From Ascidiella aspersa (Eukaryota): DNA of 64,000 nt. Below are positions 3,209 to 50,973 of the stretch, piece by piece. A model generated the notes under the pieces. That model was not told the origin of the DNA, did not search any database, and saw only the letters and a program-made list of their open reading frames with translations. The stretch's first letter is position 1; each line of letters starts with the position of its first letter. The stretch lies in the NCBI GenBank assembly GCA_963924565.1, contig OZ004609.1, positions 5,208,001 through 5,272,000 on the forward strand. Direction: 5' to 3'. Position numbers and translations under genes: made by a program.

Positions 3209-3388
3209 TCCGTCCGGTGAGAGGGATCACTGTGGAAATGAAAGAAGATGAGCGACTGGCCAAGCACGGTTAAAGCACGCAGCATGCGAAAAATATTTCT
3301 ACTAGTTATGGTTATGATTAAATTTACGGTTATGGTTACGGTTATATACAATGTTGTGATTTTGGTGTATGAAATGACTCTAGCTGGG

Positions 3389-35370: not shown

Positions 35371-35982
35371 TTTTTTTTCTCTCTCTATGGGTTTATTTAC
35401 ATTAAACAAACGATAAACAAAGGCAATATAACAAAAACGAAAAATAAGAAAAACCAAAACAAACGAAAGAATAATTTTTTATATAGTAGTTATGATAGAA
35501 ATATGCTTCGATTTTGGAGCCGGTATATATGCAGGCTATTTAATTGGGAGTCTTTTTTAAGGTAGTTTGGACTTCGCGCGGTTTTAATGTGCTGTGTTAC
35601 TTGTTGGGGAATTGGCTATTTTTGGAGATGGCATTTTATATTTTATACTAATAGCTAGGTTTTGGACTTATGTTTGTAATTGCGTTTTATATATATGTGT
35701 CGATGTTTCGCTCTTAGTTATAGGACTATGTTTTTAAGGGAATTTTATGTTTTTAAGGACTATGTTTTTAAGGGAATTTTACACGGTTGGGTGATTTGCA
35801 GTGGTATGCAGGTTGAGTTCTTATATTTATATGGACAACCATTGTTTTATATGCTACTACATCACGGTTGGGTGGTTAGCGGTATGTACGTTGATATGTT
35901 ATATGTATACTATCAGGTAATGCTTTATGTGCCACTGCACTTTGAACTATTTTAGTTCAAGTTGTTGTGAAAAGTTGAGATT

Positions 35983-36054
35983 TTCGTCGGCGGGGTTTGA
36001 ACCCGCGGTCTCAGGACTTGATACCCGGTGACTTAGCCACTCGGCTATTCAGTT
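35983..36054 (-). promoter_or_regulatory. tRNA-derived Pol III promoter in E6 3' UTR
   Basis: A box TAGCCGAGTGG; B box GGTTCAAACCC; T-arm GCGGG/CCCGC; TTTT shortly downstream. Confidence 0.75.
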
Positions 36055-37222
36055 ATTGTGAGGAGGCGGTGAAAAGAGCGTATACGAATGACTAGTTTTG
36101 AGTTAAGGGGCTGTTTAGGCTGGGCTAGCTGGAAGTCATCCGCGGTTTGCGGATAGACATTTGCGTAGGTTGCAAGGGGGGCGAAGAAAATAAAAGGCGA
36201 GGAAAACAAATGTTTTAATAAGTAATATAACATAAGGAAATTAAATCTATCTCTTGCCAAACCGACAAGGGACGGCAAAACATTAAGTAATGGTTAGGTA
36301 TTCATCCGCATTTGGCGGAGGCTTAATATGCGAATTAAAGCAATAAATGGCTTTTAATAAACAGGATAGGTACAAAAAGGCACAGAATATATATAAAAAA
36401 GCAATGTAGAATTAAGTCTGCCTCTTGCCTAACCGGCAAGGGGCGGCAAATGACTTTAGGAAATAAGTAAATAAGATATTTATTAAGTCACGTGGTTTAG
36501 CCTCATGTGCTTATTCACAAAGGAGGTTTAGGCAGTGAAATTTTTAGGCTAGGTTTTTGGATGGTTGTGTATATTAGTAAAGGGTTATGACTTATAGAGC
36601 GGTTTATGGTAAGAAGATTATGATAAGTATTATCCAGTAGAGACGGTGACGTCACATTGTTTATACACATTACAGTCACTAGGCAACAGCCAGCTGTGTT
36701 TTGTTATTGTTATTGTTTTGGTTATATCAGCTGACCATTGCCTAGTGACGGCGGTTACATTTCAGGGAAAAAGAAGAACATAGGAAGTAAGCATGTGAAA
36801 TAATAATAGCAGATGTAACAAAAAGAAAAGAGTATGGTTTAAAAGTTGTCAAATAATTTTTAAAAGTGGATTATTTCACCCAAGACTTATTTCTATGGAT
36901 TATTATGTGGATCAAGAGTTTTAAGCAAAATTTAGAGGTATGTTAAATTAAAATTCATTGTTTTAACGAAATATACATTTGTTATATAATCACAAAGCAA
37001 TTTAAAATATAGTTTTTAACAAGAAGAAAAAATTTTTTTGATAGGAATTGGGACAAAGGTCAAGTTTCGGACTCTCTGGTTATCGAGTAGAGGCTGATCA
37101 TTAAGATACAGGTATTAATATATTATGGTTATTATTATTTTTTTGAAAATTTAGCAATTGCAGTGTTAATAGTAAATGAAGTAACAGTAGAAATAATTAT
37201 TTAATCGACAAAGATATACATA

Positions 37223-40200
37223 TTAAAATATTATAAGATTTTCGCTGCCGCTGTTAAGTTCCGAAGAAGTGTCAAGGTTGTAGAACTTGACCAGTCGCTC
37301 TGGTGACAAAATGCTCGCGAAGGATTTAAATTTGGTTCTGATTTTCCAGTATGTTTTATTGATAAATTTCGTTTGATCCCATATATAATCGTTTTCGAGA
37401 TCTTGTTTTTGTTTTGCTTTAATTAGGGTAGTTTTAAAAATATTTGCTAGTTTTATTATAAAAGGGTGAGTGTTACCTTGGGCTGGGCAGTTGTATTGTA
37501 GAATGGACGTGGATAGTTCTTCAGTACAGCCTCTGTCCTCGAGGATGAATGCCTCGAGTCTTCGGGCCAATTGTTTAACTACTGGACAATGCTCTATCAT
37601 ATGTGTTATGGTGTCTTCCTCATCTCTGCAAAGCTTGCAGTGCAGTTTGAATACCCTGCCCGTTTCGTTTTGGAAAATTTGGCGGTTCATTTTGAACTTA
37701 CCCCAAAAATAGCCTTTTTGTGCTATCCGATAATTGATTTCCCGTTCCGAATTGGTGTGAAAATATTTAACGTTATTGTTCTTTAAGAGAATGGTATTCC
37801 AACTGCATTGCGAGTCCTGCAGAGGGAGGGTGGTTGGAATATATTTATTTTTAACTATTTCTTTATATAGATGCTTTTGTTTTGCTGTTTCCCAGTCAAA
37901 GCTGTTTGCAGTTTGGCTGTTGATGATGTTATGATTATATATTTTGTTGATCCATTCTGGCCTTGTTTGTAAATTTTTTGGATAAGATTGGTTATATAAT
38001 TTGGGGTTTATTGATTTAGCTTTGAATCCAAGATGGTATCTGACCCATGAGTGCCAGAAGTCGGAGATGGTGTCCAAATTTTTATAATCTTTGAGCTGCT
38101 CGAGTTGAGCAGCTTCTATTTTAGCTCCGACATCTGGCACCCATAGGCCGCCTTCTTTTACCGGTGCGATTATTTTTTTCCTCGCTACGGGTTCCATGGA
38201 GAGTGGAAACCACAAAAAGCCAAAAATGAGGGTTTGAAATTGTTTAATGTATTTTTGCCTCATCGTTAGAATTCTAGCTGTAAAGATAATTTGGGACATG
38301 ATGAGGGCTTGTATCAAGTTTATTTTACCAAAGACCGAAAGGTTTCTATATTTGTGAATTTGGATTATGTTTTTAATTTTATCAATTTTTTTTGGCCAGT
38401 TTAGCTTTTCGTGGTCTCCACTCTCCCCGTAGCAGATTCCCAGTATTTTACATTCGGTTTTTACATATTCTGGGTATACAGTGGTAACTCTATGTTTCAG
38501 GTCCTTGTTAAAAGCAATTATTTCCGTTTTTTCGACGTTGAGTTTTTGTCCGCTTATTGTTTCATATTGTTTCAAGTTTAATAAAATTTGATTAATCGAT
38601 TCTACGTTGGTGGTAAAAAAAGTGCAGTCGTCTGCATACTGTTCCAGTTTGATTTCAGTTTTTCCAAATTTTGGTCCATTGATTTTAGGGTTGTTTTTTA
38701 TTATGTGGGCTAGTACGTCGGCACTGGCTATAAAGAGTAGCATCGACAGGGAGCATCCCTGTCGTATGCCTCTTTTGATTTGAATTTCGTTGCCAAGTTT
38801 CCCGTTGATAAGTATTTGGCTGGTGATATTTTTGTATATGATTTTTATCCAGTTTATCAGGTAGTTGGGTATGCCGTACTTCTCCAAGACCCTGATCGCG
38901 AAGCCAATGTCGACGCGGTCAAAGGCCTTGGAGAAGTCGGTGAGAACTAAAGCAAGCGGTTGTGTGTGTGATTTAGCATATTGTGATGCGGCTTTAATGT
39001 TATAGTGTATGTGTTGTATTGATCTGTTTTTTAGGCCGCATTTTTGATTTAGTGAGATTTTTTGATCTAGGTGTTGTGTAAGTCTGTTTGTGAGTGTTTT
39101 AGTGATAATTTTGTAATCTGTGTTGAGAAGAGAGATTGGTCTCCAGTTTTTTATTTGATTTTTATCTCCTTTTTTTGGTATTAATTTAACGACGGCCTTT
39201 CTCATGGACTTTGGCATTACATTTTGTAGGTAAATATTATTCACTAATTCTGTCAAGTCCAGTTTTAGTTGGGGCCAAAAGGTTATATAGAATTCTACCG
39301 GTAGGCCGTCGCAACCTGGAGACGAACCTCTGTTCATTTTGTTTATTGCTTGCTTTAGTTCTCGGGTGGTTATAAATAGTTGAGTTTTTGATGTGGGGGA
39401 TGTTCTAATTGTTTTCAGGATTTTCTTTTGTTTTTTACGTTTTACTGTGGGGTTTTGTCCCCACAGTTCGTCGTAAAAGGTGTGGATTATGGTTTCAATT
39501 TTTTGTGGGTTTGTTGTTGGGTTTTGATTTATCGGGTCGGTTAATTTGTGGATGCCGGTGTTGGTATTTCGGGTTTTCTCTTTTAAATAGAATTGGGTAT
39601 TAGGTATTTCGTCATTTTCAAAGTTTATGATTTTGGCTCGTTTTTTGGCTCCTTCCAGGATATTGTTTTCGTAGTCTTTGATTTTTTGTTTTGTTTCTAG
39701 GTATGTTTTGTTTGTTTGTAATTGCTGAGGGTCTATTTTTTCCATTAATGATTTTAAAGTTTGGGCGTATACTCGTTGTTGTTTTTCTTGTTGTTTTTTA
39801 AAATTGATGGAGAATGTTTTGGATTTTTTCCGAATTGATGATTTAAGATCTTCCCACCAATTTGATATGTGATGGTAGTCACATTTTTTTGTTTGCCAAT
39901 GCGCCAAATGTTCCCTTATTAAAGTTTTGTATTCCTCATTCTCCATCAATTGACAGTTCAATTTCCATATGCCTTTTCCCCATTTGGTCTGGGAGTTAAG
40001 TTTGATTTTAATAAAAGGGGATTGGGAATGGTCCGAAAAGGCATATGGAAAGTGCCCTGCTTGGTTGATCCAGGATGACAGGCTCTTGGTGTGGTAGATC
40101 CTGTCAATCCTGGATGCGGCTTTCCGTGCTATATACGTGTATGTTTTTTTGTGGGGGTAGAATAGTCGAAAGGAGTCAACTAAATCAAGTTGACTCCTCT

Positions 40201-40813
40201 CGACTATCCACCTCCTGGTTGCGATGTTTTGCCGTTGCCTGGTTGCGGTGTTGTCCTTGGGGTATTCAGTAAAATTGAAATCACCAAGGACGATATGGTT
40301 ATGACTATATTTATGGTTATGGCTATGTTTACGGTTATGGTTATGATTATGTTTATGGGGCTGCTTGATATCGTCTAGGACGGTGTCAAGCATCTCAAAG
40401 CGGGTTTTGACTTTTATTGAGCCTTCCCCAGACGGCAGATATAGATTATATATATTTATTTGTTCGTTTTCTTGTTTGTCGTCTGGGGACCATTCTATTG
40501 TTATTTGTTGGATTCTATCCGGGATGATTATTTTATGTTTTATACTATGTTTATTTAATTTGTCGAGGAAGGAGCCGTTGACTAAAAAAGCCGTGCCGGC
40601 GAAATTTAGATTAGAGTTAGTAGTGTTAGGATAGAAGATTATATTATGTTTATTTAGGATTGCATTAAATTTGGTAATATTAAAGTTATGAGTTTCCTGT
40701 ATACCCAGAATATGTATATTGTTTAGATTTACAAATGATAGAACACTGTCCAGTTTCTTACTTAATGAATTTACGTTGACAGAGGCTATCCTGATTTCGC
40801 CATCCACGTCCAT
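37223..40813 (-). CDS. E6 ORF2: APE endonuclease-RT, 1196 aa
   Basis: NVNS, QETH, GDFNF, RIDR, SDH; PGCDG, NWRPIS, DFSKAFDRV, QGCSLS, YADD; CKLC...H....C. Confidence 0.97.
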   Translation of the reverse strand: MDVDGEIRIASVNVNSLSKKLDSVLSFVNLNNIHILGIQETHNFNITKFNAILNKHNIIFYPNTTNSNLNFAGTAFLVNGSFLDKLNKHSIKHKIIIPDRIQQITIEWSPDDKQENEQINIYNLYLPSGEGSIKVKTRFEMLDTVLDDIKQPHKHNHNHNRKHSHNHKYSHNHIVLGDFNFTEYPKDNTATRQRQNIATRRWIVERSQLDLVDSFRLFYPHKKTYTYIARKAASRIDRIYHTKSLSSWINQAGHFPYAFSDHSQSPFIKIKLNSQTKWGKGIWKLNCQLMENEEYKTLIREHLAHWQTKKCDYHHISNWWEDLKSSIRKKSKTFSINFKKQQEKQQRVYAQTLKSLMEKIDPQQLQTNKTYLETKQKIKDYENNILEGAKKRAKIINFENDEIPNTQFYLKEKTRNTNTGIHKLTDPINQNPTTNPQKIETIIHTFYDELWGQNPTVKRKKQKKILKTIRTSPTSKTQLFITTRELKQAINKMNRGSSPGCDGLPVEFYITFWPQLKLDLTELVNNIYLQNVMPKSMRKAVVKLIPKKGDKNQIKNWRPISLLNTDYKIITKTLTNRLTQHLDQKISLNQKCGLKNRSIQHIHYNIKAASQYAKSHTQPLALVLTDFSKAFDRVDIGFAIRVLEKYGIPNYLINWIKIIYKNITSQILINGKLGNEIQIKRGIRQGCSLSMLLFIASADVLAHIIKNNPKINGPKFGKTEIKLEQYADDCTFFTTNVESINQILLNLKQYETISGQKLNVEKTEIIAFNKDLKHRVTTVYPEYVKTECKILGICYGESGDHEKLNWPKKIDKIKNIIQIHKYRNLSVFGKINLIQALIMSQIIFTARILTMRQKYIKQFQTLIFGFLWFPLSMEPVARKKIIAPVKEGGLWVPDVGAKIEAAQLEQLKDYKNLDTISDFWHSWVRYHLGFKAKSINPKLYNQSYPKNLQTRPEWINKIYNHNIINSQTANSFDWETAKQKHLYKEIVKNKYIPTTLPLQDSQCSWNTILLKNNNVKYFHTNSEREINYRIAQKGYFWGKFKMNRQIFQNETGRVFKLHCKLCRDEEDTITHMIEHCPVVKQLARRLEAFILEDRGCTEELSTSILQYNCPAQGNTHPFIIKLANIFKTTLIKAKQKQDLENDYIWDQTKFINKTYWKIRTKFKSFASILSPERLVKFYNLDTSSELNSGSENLIIF

Positions 40814-41000
40814 TCCGTCCGGTGAGAGGGATCACTGTGGAGAAAATGAGTATGATGAGCGACTGGCCAAGGAGGAAGAATTATACATGAAATAAAAACT
40901 ACGATTACGGTTATGATTATAATTACAGTTACGTTTACGATTATGATATGCTTTGTTATGGAATTGGTGTTCGTGTGAATGTGTGTGATGCCTAGCTTGG

Positions 41001-42329
41001 TCAGCATCCTTTCTTTTTCTTTCTGTTTTTTCTTTTTTGGCGTTGGGGTGGGGTTCCGTCGGTTGGGGTGTCGGTGGTGCTGAGTGTTCTTTTGTTACTG
41101 CTAGGGTCATGGCCTTCAGATTCAGTGCTTTCAGATTCGTCGGAGCTGGGAGCTTCTTGCTGGAATTTGGAGATTAGATTTGAAACTAGTGTTGGGCTTG
41201 GGATTATGATCCGCGGGGATTGGACATCAGTGGACGACAGGGGGTGGTGGGTGGGGGTGTGATAGGTGGAGTTAACGGATTGATTTTGTATGATTGCATG
41301 GGAGGTTGAAGGGCGTTGGGGTCGGGGAGGTGGGGAGTTTTGGGCAGGGGGTGGAGGTGGGGGAGAGAGGGTGCTGCGGGAAGGGGACAGGTGATTGGGT
41401 TGCGAGGTGTGTAGCTGGTCTGGTTTGGGTTCATCAGGTTTGTTTGCTTGGTTGTGGTTGTTTTCGTTGTCGGAATTGCTGGATTGGTTTTCATCGATTA
41501 CGAGGTTAGAGTTGTTGTTGTCGGATAGGTCAGAGGGTACGTCATCTTGCCTTAGGCTTTCAGAGGATTGGTTAGGATTTTTATTTGGTTTGTTTGCTGC
41601 ATTTTGGTTTGTAATAGCTGGGAATTCTTCATTGTATTTTTCTTGGTTGGTGATTTCTTCTGGATTTTTGTTGGTTGTCGCAGAGGGTGATGTACCCTCT
41701 TGGCTTTTGTTTGGTTGGTTTGCGTTATTTTTTTGTGGACACTGGTTAGACCAGTGTCCCCTTTGGCGGCAGAATCGGCAGTTCGGGCCGAATGATTCGC
41801 CTGGTTTTATCACCTGTATGCGGTTTTGAAAGATTGAAATTTCAGTTGGGATATTTGAGATTATTGGTTCTTCTAGGCTGAGGTTGACGTAACCGTTTCG
41901 GATTTCTGGGTGGTTTCTGTGAGATAACCATTGGTGATTTTTATATTTTCCCCAGCTTAGCTTGCTGGGGAGGGCTTCTAATCGGTCGTCTGGTAGTTCA
42001 AATGGGACGGGGAAGAGGGTTATACGGTATAGGGGTTTGGAGGGGGTAAAGGATTGGAGGAGGATTTGGGTGCCGTCCACCTCAATCCTCTCCCCGCGGA
42101 TGTATTTTTCGTGTAGTTGGTTTCTAATGTGTTGTTGCTGGTTTTTGAAAGTAATTGTAAAGATTTTTTTTTCCCTGTTCAGAGTTCGAATGCCAATAAT
42201 TGATGTTTTATAGTGGTGCAGTGGTTGACGTTCTTGGATTAAATTGAAAAAGTTTTCTAGGGTGAATGGTCCGGTGGTCGAGATTTGAATGTTGATCGTA
42301 TGATCCTGGCATAGCGTAGAGGTCGCCAT
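41001..42329 (-). CDS. E6 ORF1 (family C), single CCHC knuckle, 442 aa
   Basis: CRFCRQRGHWSNQC; ATG at 42329 (MATSTL). Confidence 0.92.
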   Translation of the reverse strand: MATSTLCQDHTINIQISTTGPFTLENFFNLIQERQPLHHYKTSIIGIRTLNREKKIFTITFKNQQQHIRNQLHEKYIRGERIEVDGTQILLQSFTPSKPLYRITLFPVPFELPDDRLEALPSKLSWGKYKNHQWLSHRNHPEIRNGYVNLSLEEPIISNIPTEISIFQNRIQVIKPGESFGPNCRFCRQRGHWSNQCPQKNNANQPNKSQEGTSPSATTNKNPEEITNQEKYNEEFPAITNQNAANKPNKNPNQSSESLRQDDVPSDLSDNNNSNLVIDENQSSNSDNENNHNQANKPDEPKPDQLHTSQPNHLSPSRSTLSPPPPPPAQNSPPPRPQRPSTSHAIIQNQSVNSTYHTPTHHPLSSTDVQSPRIIIPSPTLVSNLISKFQQEAPSSDESESTESEGHDPSSNKRTLSTTDTPTDGTPPQRQKRKNRKKKKGC

Positions 42330-43587
42330 GCTGACCAAGCTAGAGTTGTTTTTATTTTATTTATGTGTTTTGCAGTGTTGATTTTCGCTTTTTTGTTATG
42401 AATAAAATTGCACGGATATATGGTTTTGAATTATTGATATAAAAGTATATAAAAGTATGTATGGGCAAAGATATAGTTGTATAAAAGTATATAAATAGAT
42501 TAGCTTATGATGTATAAATATATGATCTGACACAAAATGGCGGATTAAATGGTGTTAACAGTAGGTTTTAGGCGGGAAAACGGGGACAAATTTAGGACAC
42601 AAAATGGCGGCAAATAAATTTTTATGTTTAAATTTGAAGAGCCTGGCAGCCCTGCCGTCGGCGGGAGCTAGAGGGACTGCTGTCAATCAAGCCGACTACG
42701 TCGGCAAGACTGACAGGAGCCCACGCAGTAGCCGCACGCCCAACAAACGGGAGGCCAGTCTATTCTTGCTAAGTTTTTACTGTTATATTACTAATGGTTG
42801 TTGACTTTCAAACACAAAAAACACCTGCAAAACTGCACACAACCTGAACACAAGGCTGCTGCAGCCGAACTAAACTTGTAAGCTCCACAAATAATAAAAA
42901 ATAAATGGAAAAAATTGAAAAAAGATGGAAAAAATGGAAAAAACGGAAAAAAAAAAAAAAAAACGCAAAAAAGCAGCGGGCAGCGGGATTCCCTTTGAAT
43001 CGGGTAGTTGCTGGGTCCAACGAGTGGAGCAATTTACCTTATTCAAATAGAATACTTTAAAATCGCGCGGCTAAGGCTTTATGCGAAGGCCAACTTTCAA
43101 AAACGCCAGTTTACTCAATATACGATTGTATGACTTCACCACCTATATAAGGGTGTCGCCAGAGAGGCGCTGGTAAGTATTCACCATGCTATGTGGTCAC
43201 GTGGTACTTCGCGTTGTTCGAAATTTCTTGTCGCGCCCCGTTCGTTTCAACCGCGACATTTTTAACAAAAAATTAACGCTCAAAAAGCCAACTCAACATT
43301 GATCCCAATGCATATCGCGCGCTGTGCCACTTCAAAGGGCGGCCTACACGCAAGAGAGAAGCGCCCTACGGTAAGTTGGAGGAAGCGTCACCTGCGAAAG
43401 CCACGGGGGTCGGGCAGACTTGCAAAGGAGAGAGAGGAGCTGATTTTGGTTATGGGAGAGTGGGCCAGGGCTATACATGCATTTTCGCCATCTCTTAATT
43501 TGACAAAGGACGCGATTACGCGATTTGGGGATTTTGCTACATGAATGCAATACAGTGGGGGTAGCTTGGCTAAGCGATTGATTGGTT

Positions 43588-43637
43588 CTAAAAAATATTC
43601 CACCGTGGTGGAGCAACTTACCTTATTCAAATAGAAT
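43588..43637 (-). ncRNA. Intact spliced-leader RNA gene
   Basis: Identical to 34769-34818. Confidence 0.9.
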
Positions 43638-44171
43638 ACTTTAAAATCGCGCGGCTAAGGCTTTATGCGAAGGCCAACTTTCAAAAACGCCAGTTTACTC
43701 AATATACGATTGTATGACTTCACCACCTATATAAGGGTGTCGCCAGAGAGGCGCTGGTAAGTATTCACCATGCTATGTGGTCACGTGGTACTTCGCGTTG
43801 TTCGAAATTTCTTGTCGCGCCCCGTTCGTTTCAACCGCGACATTTTTAACAAAAAATTAACGCTCAAAAAGCCAACTCAACATTGATCCCAATGCATATC
43901 GCGCGCTGTGCCACTTCAAAGGGCGGCCTACACGCAAGAGAGAAGCGCCCTACGGTAAGTTGGAGGAAGCGTCACCTGCGAAAGCCACGGGGGTCGGGCA
44001 GACTTGCAAAGGAGAGAGAGGAGCTGATTTTGGTTATGGGAGAGTGGGCCAGGGCTATACATGCATTTTCGCCATCTCTTAATTTGACAAAGGACGCGAT
44101 TACGCGATTTGGGGATTTTGCTACATGAATGCAATACAGTGGGGGTAGCTTGGCTAAGCGATTGATTGGTT

Positions 44172-44221
44172 CTAAAAAATATTCCACCGTGGTGGAGCAA
44201 CTTACCTTATTCAAATAGAAT
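44172..44221 (-). ncRNA. Intact spliced-leader RNA gene
   Basis: Identical to 34769-34818. Confidence 0.9.
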
Positions 44222-44755
44222 ACTTTAAAATCGCGCGGCTAAGGCTTTATGCGAAGGCCAACTTTCAAAAACGCCAGTTTACTCAATATACGATTGTATG
44301 ACTTCACCACCTATATAAGGGTGTCGCCAGAGAGGCGCTGGTAAGTATTCACCATGCTATGTGGTCACGTGGTACTTCGCGTTGTTCGAAATTTCTTGTC
44401 GCGCCCCGTTCGTTTCAACCGCGACATTTTTAACAAAAAATTAACGCTCAAAAAGCCAACTCAACATTGATCCCAATGCATATCGCGCGCTGTGGCACTT
44501 CAAAGGGCGGCCTACACGCAAGAGAGAAGCGCCCTACGGTAAGTTGGAGGAAGCGTCACCTGCGAAAGCCACGGGGGTCGGGCAGACTTGCAAAGGAGAG
44601 AGAGAAGCTGATTTTGGTTATGGGAGAGTGGGCCAGGGCTATACATGCATTTTCGCCATCTCTTAATTTGACAAAGGACGCGATTACGCGATTTGGGGAT
44701 TTTGCTACATGAATGCAATACAGTGGGGGTAGCTTGGATAAGCGATTGATTGGTT

Positions 44756-44805
44756 CTAAAAAATATTCCACCGTGGTGGAGCAACTTACCTTATTCAAAT
44801 AGAAT
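44756..44805 (-). ncRNA. Intact spliced-leader RNA gene
   Basis: Identical to 34769-34818. Confidence 0.9.
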
Positions 44806-45955
44806 ACTTTAAAATCGCGCGGCTAAGGCTTTATGCGAAGGCCAACTTTCAAAAACGCCAGTTTACTCAATATACGATTGTATGACTTCACCACCTATAT
44901 AAGGGTGTCGCCAGAGAGGCGCTGGTAAGTATTCACCATGCTATGTGGTCACGTGGTACTTCGCGTTGTTCGAAATTTCTTGTCGCGCCCCGTTCGTTTC
45001 AACCGCGACATTTTTAACAAAAAATTAACGCTCAAAAAGCCAACTCAACATTGATCCCAATGCATATCGCGCGCTGTGGCACTTCAAAGGGCGGCCTACA
45101 CACAAGAGAGAAGCGCCCTACGGTAAGTTGGAGGAAGCGTCACCTGCGAAAGCCACGGGGGTCGGGCAGACTTGCAAAGGAGAGAGAGAAGCTGATTTTG
45201 GTTATGGGAGAGTGGGCCAGGGCTATACATGCATTTTCGCCATCTCTTAATTTGACAAAGGACGCGATTACGCGATTTGGGGATTTTGCTACATGAATGC
45301 AATACAGTGGGGGTAGCTTGGATAAGCGATTGATTGGTTCTAAAAAATATTCCACCGTTTTTTTTTCTCTCTCTATGGGTTTATTTACATTAAACAAACG
45401 ATAAACAAAGGCAATATAACAAGAACGAAAAATAAGAAAAACCAAAACAAACGAAAGAATAATTTTTTATATAGTAGTTATGATAGAAATATGCTTCGAT
45501 TTTGGAGCCGGTATATATGCAGGCTATTTAATTGGGAGTCTTTTTTAAGGTAGTTTGGACTTCGCGCGGTTTTAATGTGCTGTGTTACTTGTTGGGGAAT
45601 TGGCTATTTTTGGAGATGGCATTTTATATTTTATACTAATAGCTAGGTTTTGGACTTATGTTTGTAATTGCGTTTTATATATATGTGTCGATGTTTCGCT
45701 CTTAGTTATAGGACTATGTTTTTAAGGGAATTTTATGTTTTTAAGGGAATTTTACACGGTTGGGTGATTTGCAGTGGTATGCAGGTTGAGTTCTTATATT
45801 TATATGGACAACCATTGTTTTATATGCTACTACATCACGGTTGGGTGGTTAGCGGTATGTACGTTGATATGTTATATGTATACTATCAGGTAATGCTTTA
45901 TGTGCCACTGCACTTTGAACTATTTTAGTTCAAGTTGTTGTGAAAAGTTGAGATT

Positions 45956-46027
45956 TTCGGCGGCGGGGTTTGAACCCGCGGTCTCAGGACTTGATACCCG
46001 GTGACTTAGCCACTCGGCTATTCAGTT
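45956..46027 (-). promoter_or_regulatory. tRNA-derived Pol III promoter in E7 3' UTR
   Basis: Same A and B boxes as E6. Confidence 0.75.
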
Positions 46028-50786: not shown

Positions 50787-50973
50787 TCCGTCCGGTGAGA
50801 GGGATCACTGTGGAGAAAATGAGTATGATGAGCGACTGGCCAAGGAGGAAGAATTATACATGAAATAAAAACTACGATTACGGTTATGATTATAATTACA
50901 GTTACGTTTACGATTATGATATGCTTTGTTATGGAATTGGTGTTCGTGTGAATGTGTGTGATGCCTAGCTTGG

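Follow-up and report, generated by a model that had tools for sequence, protein, structure and literature searches.

We analysed a window of 64,000 nt of the Ascidiella aspersa genome (contig OZ004609.1, 5208001-5272000), which belongs to an array of SL RNA genes. In the 384 kb of the array that was read, there were 207 exact SL exons in 584-nt units. Of these exons, 189 were free and 18 were fused to a LINE, always at the same position of the SL intron. That is, 18 of the 207 SL genes carry an element at one and the same place, the kind of target-specific insertion that characterises the L1 group / Tx1 clade. A few remnants of the LINE family C were found outside SL genes in the 308.6-Mb genome. 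The site that we describe here lies in the spacer between ORF1 and ORF2 of such an L1/Tx1-type LINE inserted in the SL RNA gene array, and its features in the element E6 are listed in Table 1.

The ORF2 of the array LINEs contained an APE endonuclease domain (PF03372) and an RT domain (PF00078), both above the cut-off, and a separate ORF1 bore a zinc knuckle; these features also agree with the L1 group / Tx1 clade. The zf-CCHC match was above the cut-off in families A and B and just under the Pfam cut-off in family C (E 0.00048; 20.5 bits against a cut-off of 20.8). The best solved relative of the family C ORF2 was human L1 ORF2 (E 5.5e-61), and a protein search matched 62 relatives, all with 33% identity or less. 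One distant match bears a TX1 name. In a quick tree, which contained no named Tx1 references, family C grouped with families A and B, L054-L057 and P0001-P0003. Family C is likely a member of the Tx1 clade.

The Tx1 clade includes target-specific LINEs such as Keno, which is found in U2 snRNA genes (PMC4494074). Like Keno and Tx1, family C has an ORF2 with APE and RT, an ORF1 with a zinc knuckle and one site in a multicopy small RNA gene, and it is likely co-transcribed with its target. In contrast, the target of family C is the intron of the SL RNA gene, and SL is not among the Tx1 targets described in the available part of PMC4494074. The SL-specific NeSL elements are described as RLE-type in the available part of PMC4640811. 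Unlike its Tx1 relatives, family C adds a spacer of 187-202 nt, a bridging frame and predicted nested helices. We found no account of an ascidian SL-targeting family C in the literature searched; subscription papers and Repbase lay outside the search, and the family may be catalogued there.

Family C gave 14 matches genome-wide, and ORF2 was open in nine of them. Its types share 77-97% identity, and they are mosaics in part. E6 and E7 form a duplicated pair (99.6% identity over 8.2 kb), and E1 is a broken copy of subfamily 2 (L011). Mosaic elements also occur at 5.27-5.44 Mb of the contig, where an A-type ORF1 is joined to a B-like ORF2 and a B-type ORF1 to an A-like ORF2; one family C copy in the same region is 98% identical to E6 in ORF2 and only 58% identical in ORF1. 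The SL array switches strand twice (5407122-5407926 and 5451013-5451513 of the contig). A family B copy lies between SL exons on another contig (L057; G000:C2:36740000-36749500), which makes a second SL locus. A perfect 192-bp inverted repeat in a decayed LINE (L059:5088-5624) is probably a fold-back insertion.

Rfam gave no match on positions 40000-46000 of the window, and ARAGORN called no tRNA anywhere in the window. The family C 3' UTR (around 35975-36045, - strand) contains tRNA-like A-box and B-box motifs. At the C-terminus of the family C ORF1 (41001-41030), a polybasic run and a terminal Cys are present in all intact types; we can only speculate whether this is a consequence of the overlapping ATG or a lipidation-like signal. 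One type of six-base repeat occurs twice, in the spacer (40890-40960) and in a His-Asn run of the endonuclease domain (40290-40360).

Table 1. Features of E6 and the corresponding sites in E7 and E1 (window coordinates).
Feature	Position	Strand	Remark
SL exon, 16 nt, at the head of E6	43038..43053	-	Donor 43037-43032 is GTAAAT; GTAAGT in free genes
E6, full-length family C LINE (APE + RT)	35371..43023	-	In SL intron, after the donor and before the putative Sm site; A-rich 3' end
ORF1, 442 aa, one zinc knuckle	41001..42329	-	
ORF1 start-stop helix, 5' arm (predicted)	42328..42344	-	Covers AU of ORF1 AUG; partner 41007-40991
ORF1 start-stop helix, 3' arm (predicted)	40991..41007	-	Holds overlapping spacer-ORF ATG and ORF1 stop
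Spacer (bridging) ORF, 73 codons	40786..41007	-	ATG overlaps ORF1 stop; TAG 22 nt after ORF2 AUG
H1 5' arm, 15 bp (predicted)	40857..40871	-	Partner 37300-37286; CTCAT overlaps 3' edge
Pyrimidine tract and CAG, candidate 3' splice acceptor	40835..40859	-	AG 40836-40835; tract predicted unpaired
H2 5' arm, 17 bp (predicted)	40800..40816	-	Contains ORF2 AUG; partner 37516-37500; 17/17 pairs kept in 6/6 types
H3 5' arm, 15-16 bp (predicted)	40778..40794	-	Contains spacer-ORF stop; partner 37537-37521
H4 5' arm, 20-23 bp (predicted)	40731..40754	-	Partner 37604-37581
H5 5' arm, 20/20 Watson-Crick pairs (predicted)	40697..40716	-	Partner 38481-38462; other end extended in subfamily 2
ORF2, 1196 aa, APE endonuclease and RT	37223..40813	-	10 strong helices in coding sequence
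H1-H4 3' arms, near ORF2 end (predicted)	37286..37604	-	
Putative antisense intron, 3671 nt, GT-AG	37112..40782	+	Would remove nearly all of ORF2; 4 RNA reads
Tract and CAG in E7 (E6 duplicate)	50808..50833	-	AG 50809-50808
Tract and CAG in E1 (broken subfamily-2 copy)	3230..3254	-	AG 3231-3230; shorter tract

The acceptor-like site before ORF2

The preliminary description of this DNA had noticed a pyrimidine tract followed by CAG before ORF2 and had read it as a conserved 3' splice acceptor. In E6 the tract and its CAG indeed lie exactly 21 nt before the ORF2 ATG (40813), and the same tract, CAG and 21-nt layout were found in E7 and, with a shorter tract, in E1. Because E6 and E7 arose by duplication, two independent sequences stand behind this three-copy observation. 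We also confirmed that the tract varies in sequence among the copies yet remains pyrimidine-rich. The statement that the CAG is fixed holds for the 11 aligned copies, all of which have it, and L014 has TTTTCAG; it does not hold for the family in full, as L012 has TAG and L013 has no such site. A YAG is present in 13 of the 14 family C copies.

In order to see how unusual such a site is, the YAGs of four elements were ranked by a crude count of pyrimidines. Only 2-6 of the 159-161 YAGs per element were as good, the site itself included. A branch-point-like CTCAT lies about 23 nt upstream of the CAG. Judged from its sequence, the site thus resembles an acceptor beyond chance.

We weighed the proposal that the CAG is a working acceptor, at which SL trans-splicing would give ORF2 its own capped mRNA; this route could coexist with the helices described below as a minor one. 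As far as the letters go, the site matches the operons of Ciona that are resolved by SL trans-splicing (PMC2760879, PMC11155486): an acceptor-like YAG stands shortly before a downstream AUG, in an animal that uses SL. The available parts of these papers report 1,310 candidate operons so resolved in Ciona (PMC2760879) and SL trans-splicing favoured by weak upstream donors (PMC11155486). The retention of the YAG next to a changing tract speaks for the proposal, as do the predicted unpaired state of the tract and the fact that no consistent long-range helix accounts for the CAG. Unlike the Ciona operons, the spacer has no poly(A) signal before the AG (AATAAA and ATTAAA were absent from 4 of 4 spacers). 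Moreover, the available Ciona accounts describe a preference for the first acceptor, and good YAGs occur earlier, in the 5' UTR or ORF1. SL joined to ORF2 was found in none of the 14 genomic family C copies, that is, there was no such retrocopy among them.

The comparison with related LINEs also bears on this proposal. The spacers of families A and B are 48 and 55 nt long, consist of 69-73% pyrimidine and contain no AG, and L054, L055, L057 and L058 likewise have a tract without AG before the AUG. In these five sister lineages the tract stands directly before the AUG, which argues against a role in splicing, and by sequence comparison the tract is a spacer feature of the whole clade. On the other side, the decayed relative L060 has both a tract and a CAG, and three relatives named below have no AUG before the endonuclease domain. 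On the reading that we favour, the tract would be no more than the usual spacer tract of this clade, and the CAG would serve as a minor acceptor at best.

The surroundings of the CAG are conserved on both sides in the 11 copies. In the block that has the CAG at its 5' end, 63 of 67 columns do not vary, and an invariant block of 16 nt lies on the other, upstream side of the tract. There are 20 invariant positions on the exon side of the CAG, which an acceptor does not explain. The 23 nt from the CAG to position -4 are conserved without a consistent pairing partner; in E6, 5 of 40 shuffles gave a better duplex than the best one of this stretch, and in C5292 0 of 40 did so. We had considered that the CAG lies inside a long-range helix and rejected this, since no consistent helix was found over it.

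Two other readings of the site were also rejected. The first took CAG-TGA as the true end of ORF1; however, a conserved ORF1 stop lies 166-181 nt before the AG, and a path in the ORF2 frame to the CAG-TGA is blocked by stops in subfamily 2. The second, a fusion of ORF1 and ORF2 through splicing at the AG, was rejected because of an in-frame TGA after the AG in 10 of 11 copies.

SL donors and RNA reads

The donors of the fused SL genes differ from those of the free genes. GTAAGT was found in 188 of the 189 free SL genes, whereas the G at +5 was lost in 17 of the 18 fused copies (7 to A, 7 to C and 3 to T), in different families, within 5.22-5.47 Mb. The pattern suggests that the donor was weakened several times in the fused SL genes, and the elements seem to bring along, and to degrade, an SL 5' end of their own.

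These donors are important for another variant of the splicing interpretation, in which the fused SL donor would be cis-spliced to the AG and give an RNA with ORF2 only, like human SpORF2. All 18 fused SL copies retain the GT itself, and a translatable spliced ORF2 RNA of human L1 is described in the available part of PMC2896524. There is thus a precedent for a LINE that obtains an mRNA with ORF2 alone by splicing, although SpORF2 is a product of cis-splicing and not of SL trans-splicing. The loss of the G at +5 speaks against the cis-splicing variant, and we consider this variant very improbable.

One RNA run, chosen by its species label, was used, of which 7,793,684 records (about 6% of the run) were read; coverage was low, and the depth says nothing on expression. 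A 5.9-kb stretch received 19 reads, none of which was of the sense type in the bin holding the AG (no first-mate-plus depth). None of these 19 reads carried an SL loose end or a sense joint at the AG, whether from SL trans-splicing or from the fused donor, at a coverage too low to decide between the readings.

Four of the reads cross the site with a 63-nt loose end at 40779, and this end maps to 37078-37107 in the 3' UTR of the element, a little beyond the 5.9-kb stretch. Our first impression of a chimeric locus was dropped, because the end is the element's own 3' UTR. The interval between reads GT...AG on the + strand only. The first mates of the four joint reads are on the - strand, as would be expected of antisense RNA provided that the library was made with the common stranded protocol. 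The genomic matches across the joint were contiguous in 5 of 5 cases, no ORF spans the joint, and the antisense donor is present in 5 of 9 intact copies. We infer an antisense GT-AG intron that would remove nearly all of ORF2; the alternative is that the animal sampled carried a deletion allele. The acceptor of this putative intron sits in the H3 arm, and the fold may bring the intron ends nearer. For Drosophila TART, likewise a target-specific LINE, an antisense RNA has been described that has GT-AG introns and lacks a long ORF (PMC1636488). The TART introns in the available part of that paper are 53-489 nt long, in contrast to the single putative intron of 3671 nt here.

Predicted long-range helices

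The family C elements contain many inverted repeats of 15-27 bp. The top inverted-repeat scores of E6 were 62, 52, 51, 47, 45, 41 and 40, compared with a best score of 41 in 40 block shuffles, and four A/B copies reached only 32-38. In ORF2 there were 10, 9 and 10 helices scoring at least 32 in three family C types; synonymous shuffles gave means of 0.13-0.20, and none of 100 reached these numbers. No helix of this strength was found in ORF2 of three A/B copies or of L054, L055 and L057, and there was no strong helix within the ORF1 coding sequence alone. The z values of the duplex between the 5' and 3' parts of ORF2 were -6.5 to -7.8 in family C and +1.2 and +1.8 in A/B.

The predicted fold is nested. 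Helices of 15-23 bp would join the spacer and the ORF2 AUG to the 3' end of ORF2, 3.2-3.6 kb away. A global fold of 5.2 kb recovered every nested helix, and co-folds of six types agreed. In this prediction, H1 joins the last 80 nt of ORF2 to the block on the upstream side of the tract, H2 buries the ORF2 AUG, H3 and H4 come next in the nest, and H5 reaches the middle of ORF2; a separate helix pairs the ORF1 start with the ORF1 stop. That is, both AUGs and both relevant stops lie inside predicted helix arms. All six family C types retain a 22-bp hairpin in the 3' UTR (36675-36749).

At fourfold-degenerate sites, 9-14% were changed in the arms and 29-36% outside them (Fisher p 0.003, 1.5e-6 and 0.0008). 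The ORF1 start-stop helix has two pairs with compensatory changes on both sides between subfamilies, one of them with a G-U intermediate. Overall, there is little covariation: the 19 candidate helices comprise 340 pairs, of which 12 changed on both sides, 21 changed on one side and 78 were broken in some type. Some of the 19 candidate helices are due to chance or are lineage-specific. H1, H2 and H4 hardly vary; because the subfamilies are mosaic, recent exchange may be part of the reason. The decayed relatives keep most of the arm pairs: 133 of 137 mapped pairs in L012, 130 of 136 in L010, 96 of 111 in L013 (70% identical) and 16 of 22 in L014. On this model, the predicted long-range helices explain most of the conservation around the acceptor-like site. 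If an SL-ORF2 mRNA were made, H2-H5 would still bury its AUG, which also stands against SL trans-splicing. Taken comprehensively, the evidence leans against the splicing interpretation of the preliminary description, which has become less likely, and we regard SL trans-splicing at this AG as unlikely.

The helices may instead have been selected for another role, such as RNP assembly and cis-preference, compaction for reverse transcription, repression of ORF2, or IRES-like initiation or shunting, with the bridging frame and the CAG being incidental. Strong helices are also present well inside ORF2 and in the 3' UTR, remote from the start codons, as this reading would expect. The related LINEs L056, L060 and L061 have an ORF2 without an AUG before the endonuclease domain. 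L056 (G000:C7:14763300-14772800), which has an open frame of 1221 codons overlapping ORF1, still has three strong helices, and this also favours another role. In contrast, the position of both AUGs and both stops in the arms would be left without a reason. We think that another role of the helices is rather unlikely as the full explanation. The rival readings of the site are partly compatible and not fully exclusive.

We found no earlier account of kilobase-range nested pairing in a LINE ORF2 in the literature searched; most subscription papers lay outside this search.

The bridging frame and a proposed route of ORF2 translation

A frame of 73, 75 or 78 codons starts at an ATG that overlaps the stop of ORF1, and it ends 22 nt past the ORF2 AUG. 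All nine copies whose ORF2 is open keep this bridging frame open as well (5 distinct sequences), and it is interrupted in each of the three decayed copies that could be aligned (L010, L011 and L012). It survives an indel of 2 nt in the tract, which is offset upstream; a frameshift compensated in this way speaks against an incidental frame. When the same changes were simulated in three comparisons, the frame stayed open in 0.57, 0.12 and 0.82 of the trials, so that this statistic is moderate (about 0.06 combined). Further AUGs are present in the spacer.

The spacer peptide drifts, with 5 synonymous and 18 non-synonymous codons, as is expected if translation matters and the product does not. A conserved membrane peptide was considered for its hydropathy peak of 2.0-3.4 and is unsupported by the codon changes. 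The CAG falls within His-Ser codons of the bridging frame, and the variants of L005 and L012 there are silent; these silent variants fit the bridging-frame and acceptor readings equally.

The overlaps AUG-n1-UGA and AUG-n22-UAG were found in 9 of 9 intact copies. In both, the restart codon comes before a nearby stop, as in the coupled termination-reinitiation of SART1 and caliciviruses, although these two spacings are not among the usual viral ones. UGGGA, the TURBS motif 1 of the calicivirus type, was absent within 100 nt before either stop/overlap in 4 of 4 copies. This absence and the lack of conservation of the spacer peptide can be counted for another role of the helices. The coupling in SART1 requires a structure downstream of the stop-start (PMC5972666 and PMC3894237, in their available parts), and such a structure is predicted in family C as H1-H5. 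Like SART1 and L1 termination-reinitiation, family C therefore combines a bicistronic LINE RNA, an overlapping stop-start and a predicted downstream RNA structure. Unlike them, family C has two successive overlaps through a frame of 73-78 codons, no UAAUG and no TURBS motif, and its predicted structure uses sequence 3.2-3.6 kb away and contains the AUG itself.

From these findings we tentatively favour structure-gated translational coupling via the bridging frame, in which the helices would bury the ORF2 AUG; on the predicted fold, we give this explanation a chance a little short of even. It starts from the target-specific insertion, the excess of inverted repeats over the nulls, the lower synonymous change in the arms, the open bridging frame and the weakened donors. 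The element would be transcribed from the SL gene promoter. In its RNA, the ORF1 start would pair with the ORF1 stop, and the spacer and the ORF2 AUG would pair with the 3' end of ORF2. Ribosomes that finish ORF1 at the AUG-N-UGA overlap would restart on the frame of 73-78 codons, and their elongation through it would unwind H1-H3. They would then stop 22 nt beyond the ORF2 AUG and re-initiate backwards on the freed AUG. As a result, ORF2p would be scarce and tied to full-length RNA.

We also considered a larger picture that contains this coupling. In it, each ORF would be closed into a loop, and the ORF2 AUG would be locked by its own 3' end 3.3 kb away and opened only through the relay of the bridging frame. 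The exposed SL acceptor might open another way to ORF2, similar to that of an operon, and the spliced antisense RNA would skip ORF2 as a whole. We regard this picture in its entirety as possible, if somewhat unlikely.

Tx1 elements in small RNA genes, SART1/L1 reinitiation, SpORF2 and the Ciona operons are already known; what is new is the set of predicted nested helices in the family C ORF2. If SL trans-splicing at the AG were true, it would mean that a retrotransposon exploits an operon mechanism of its host. How ORF2 is translated from a bicistronic LINE RNA is described as an open question in the available part of PMC3894237. Family C offers a natural test case for this question, with named helix arms, a bridging frame and a candidate acceptor, while the sister families in the same array have none of these.
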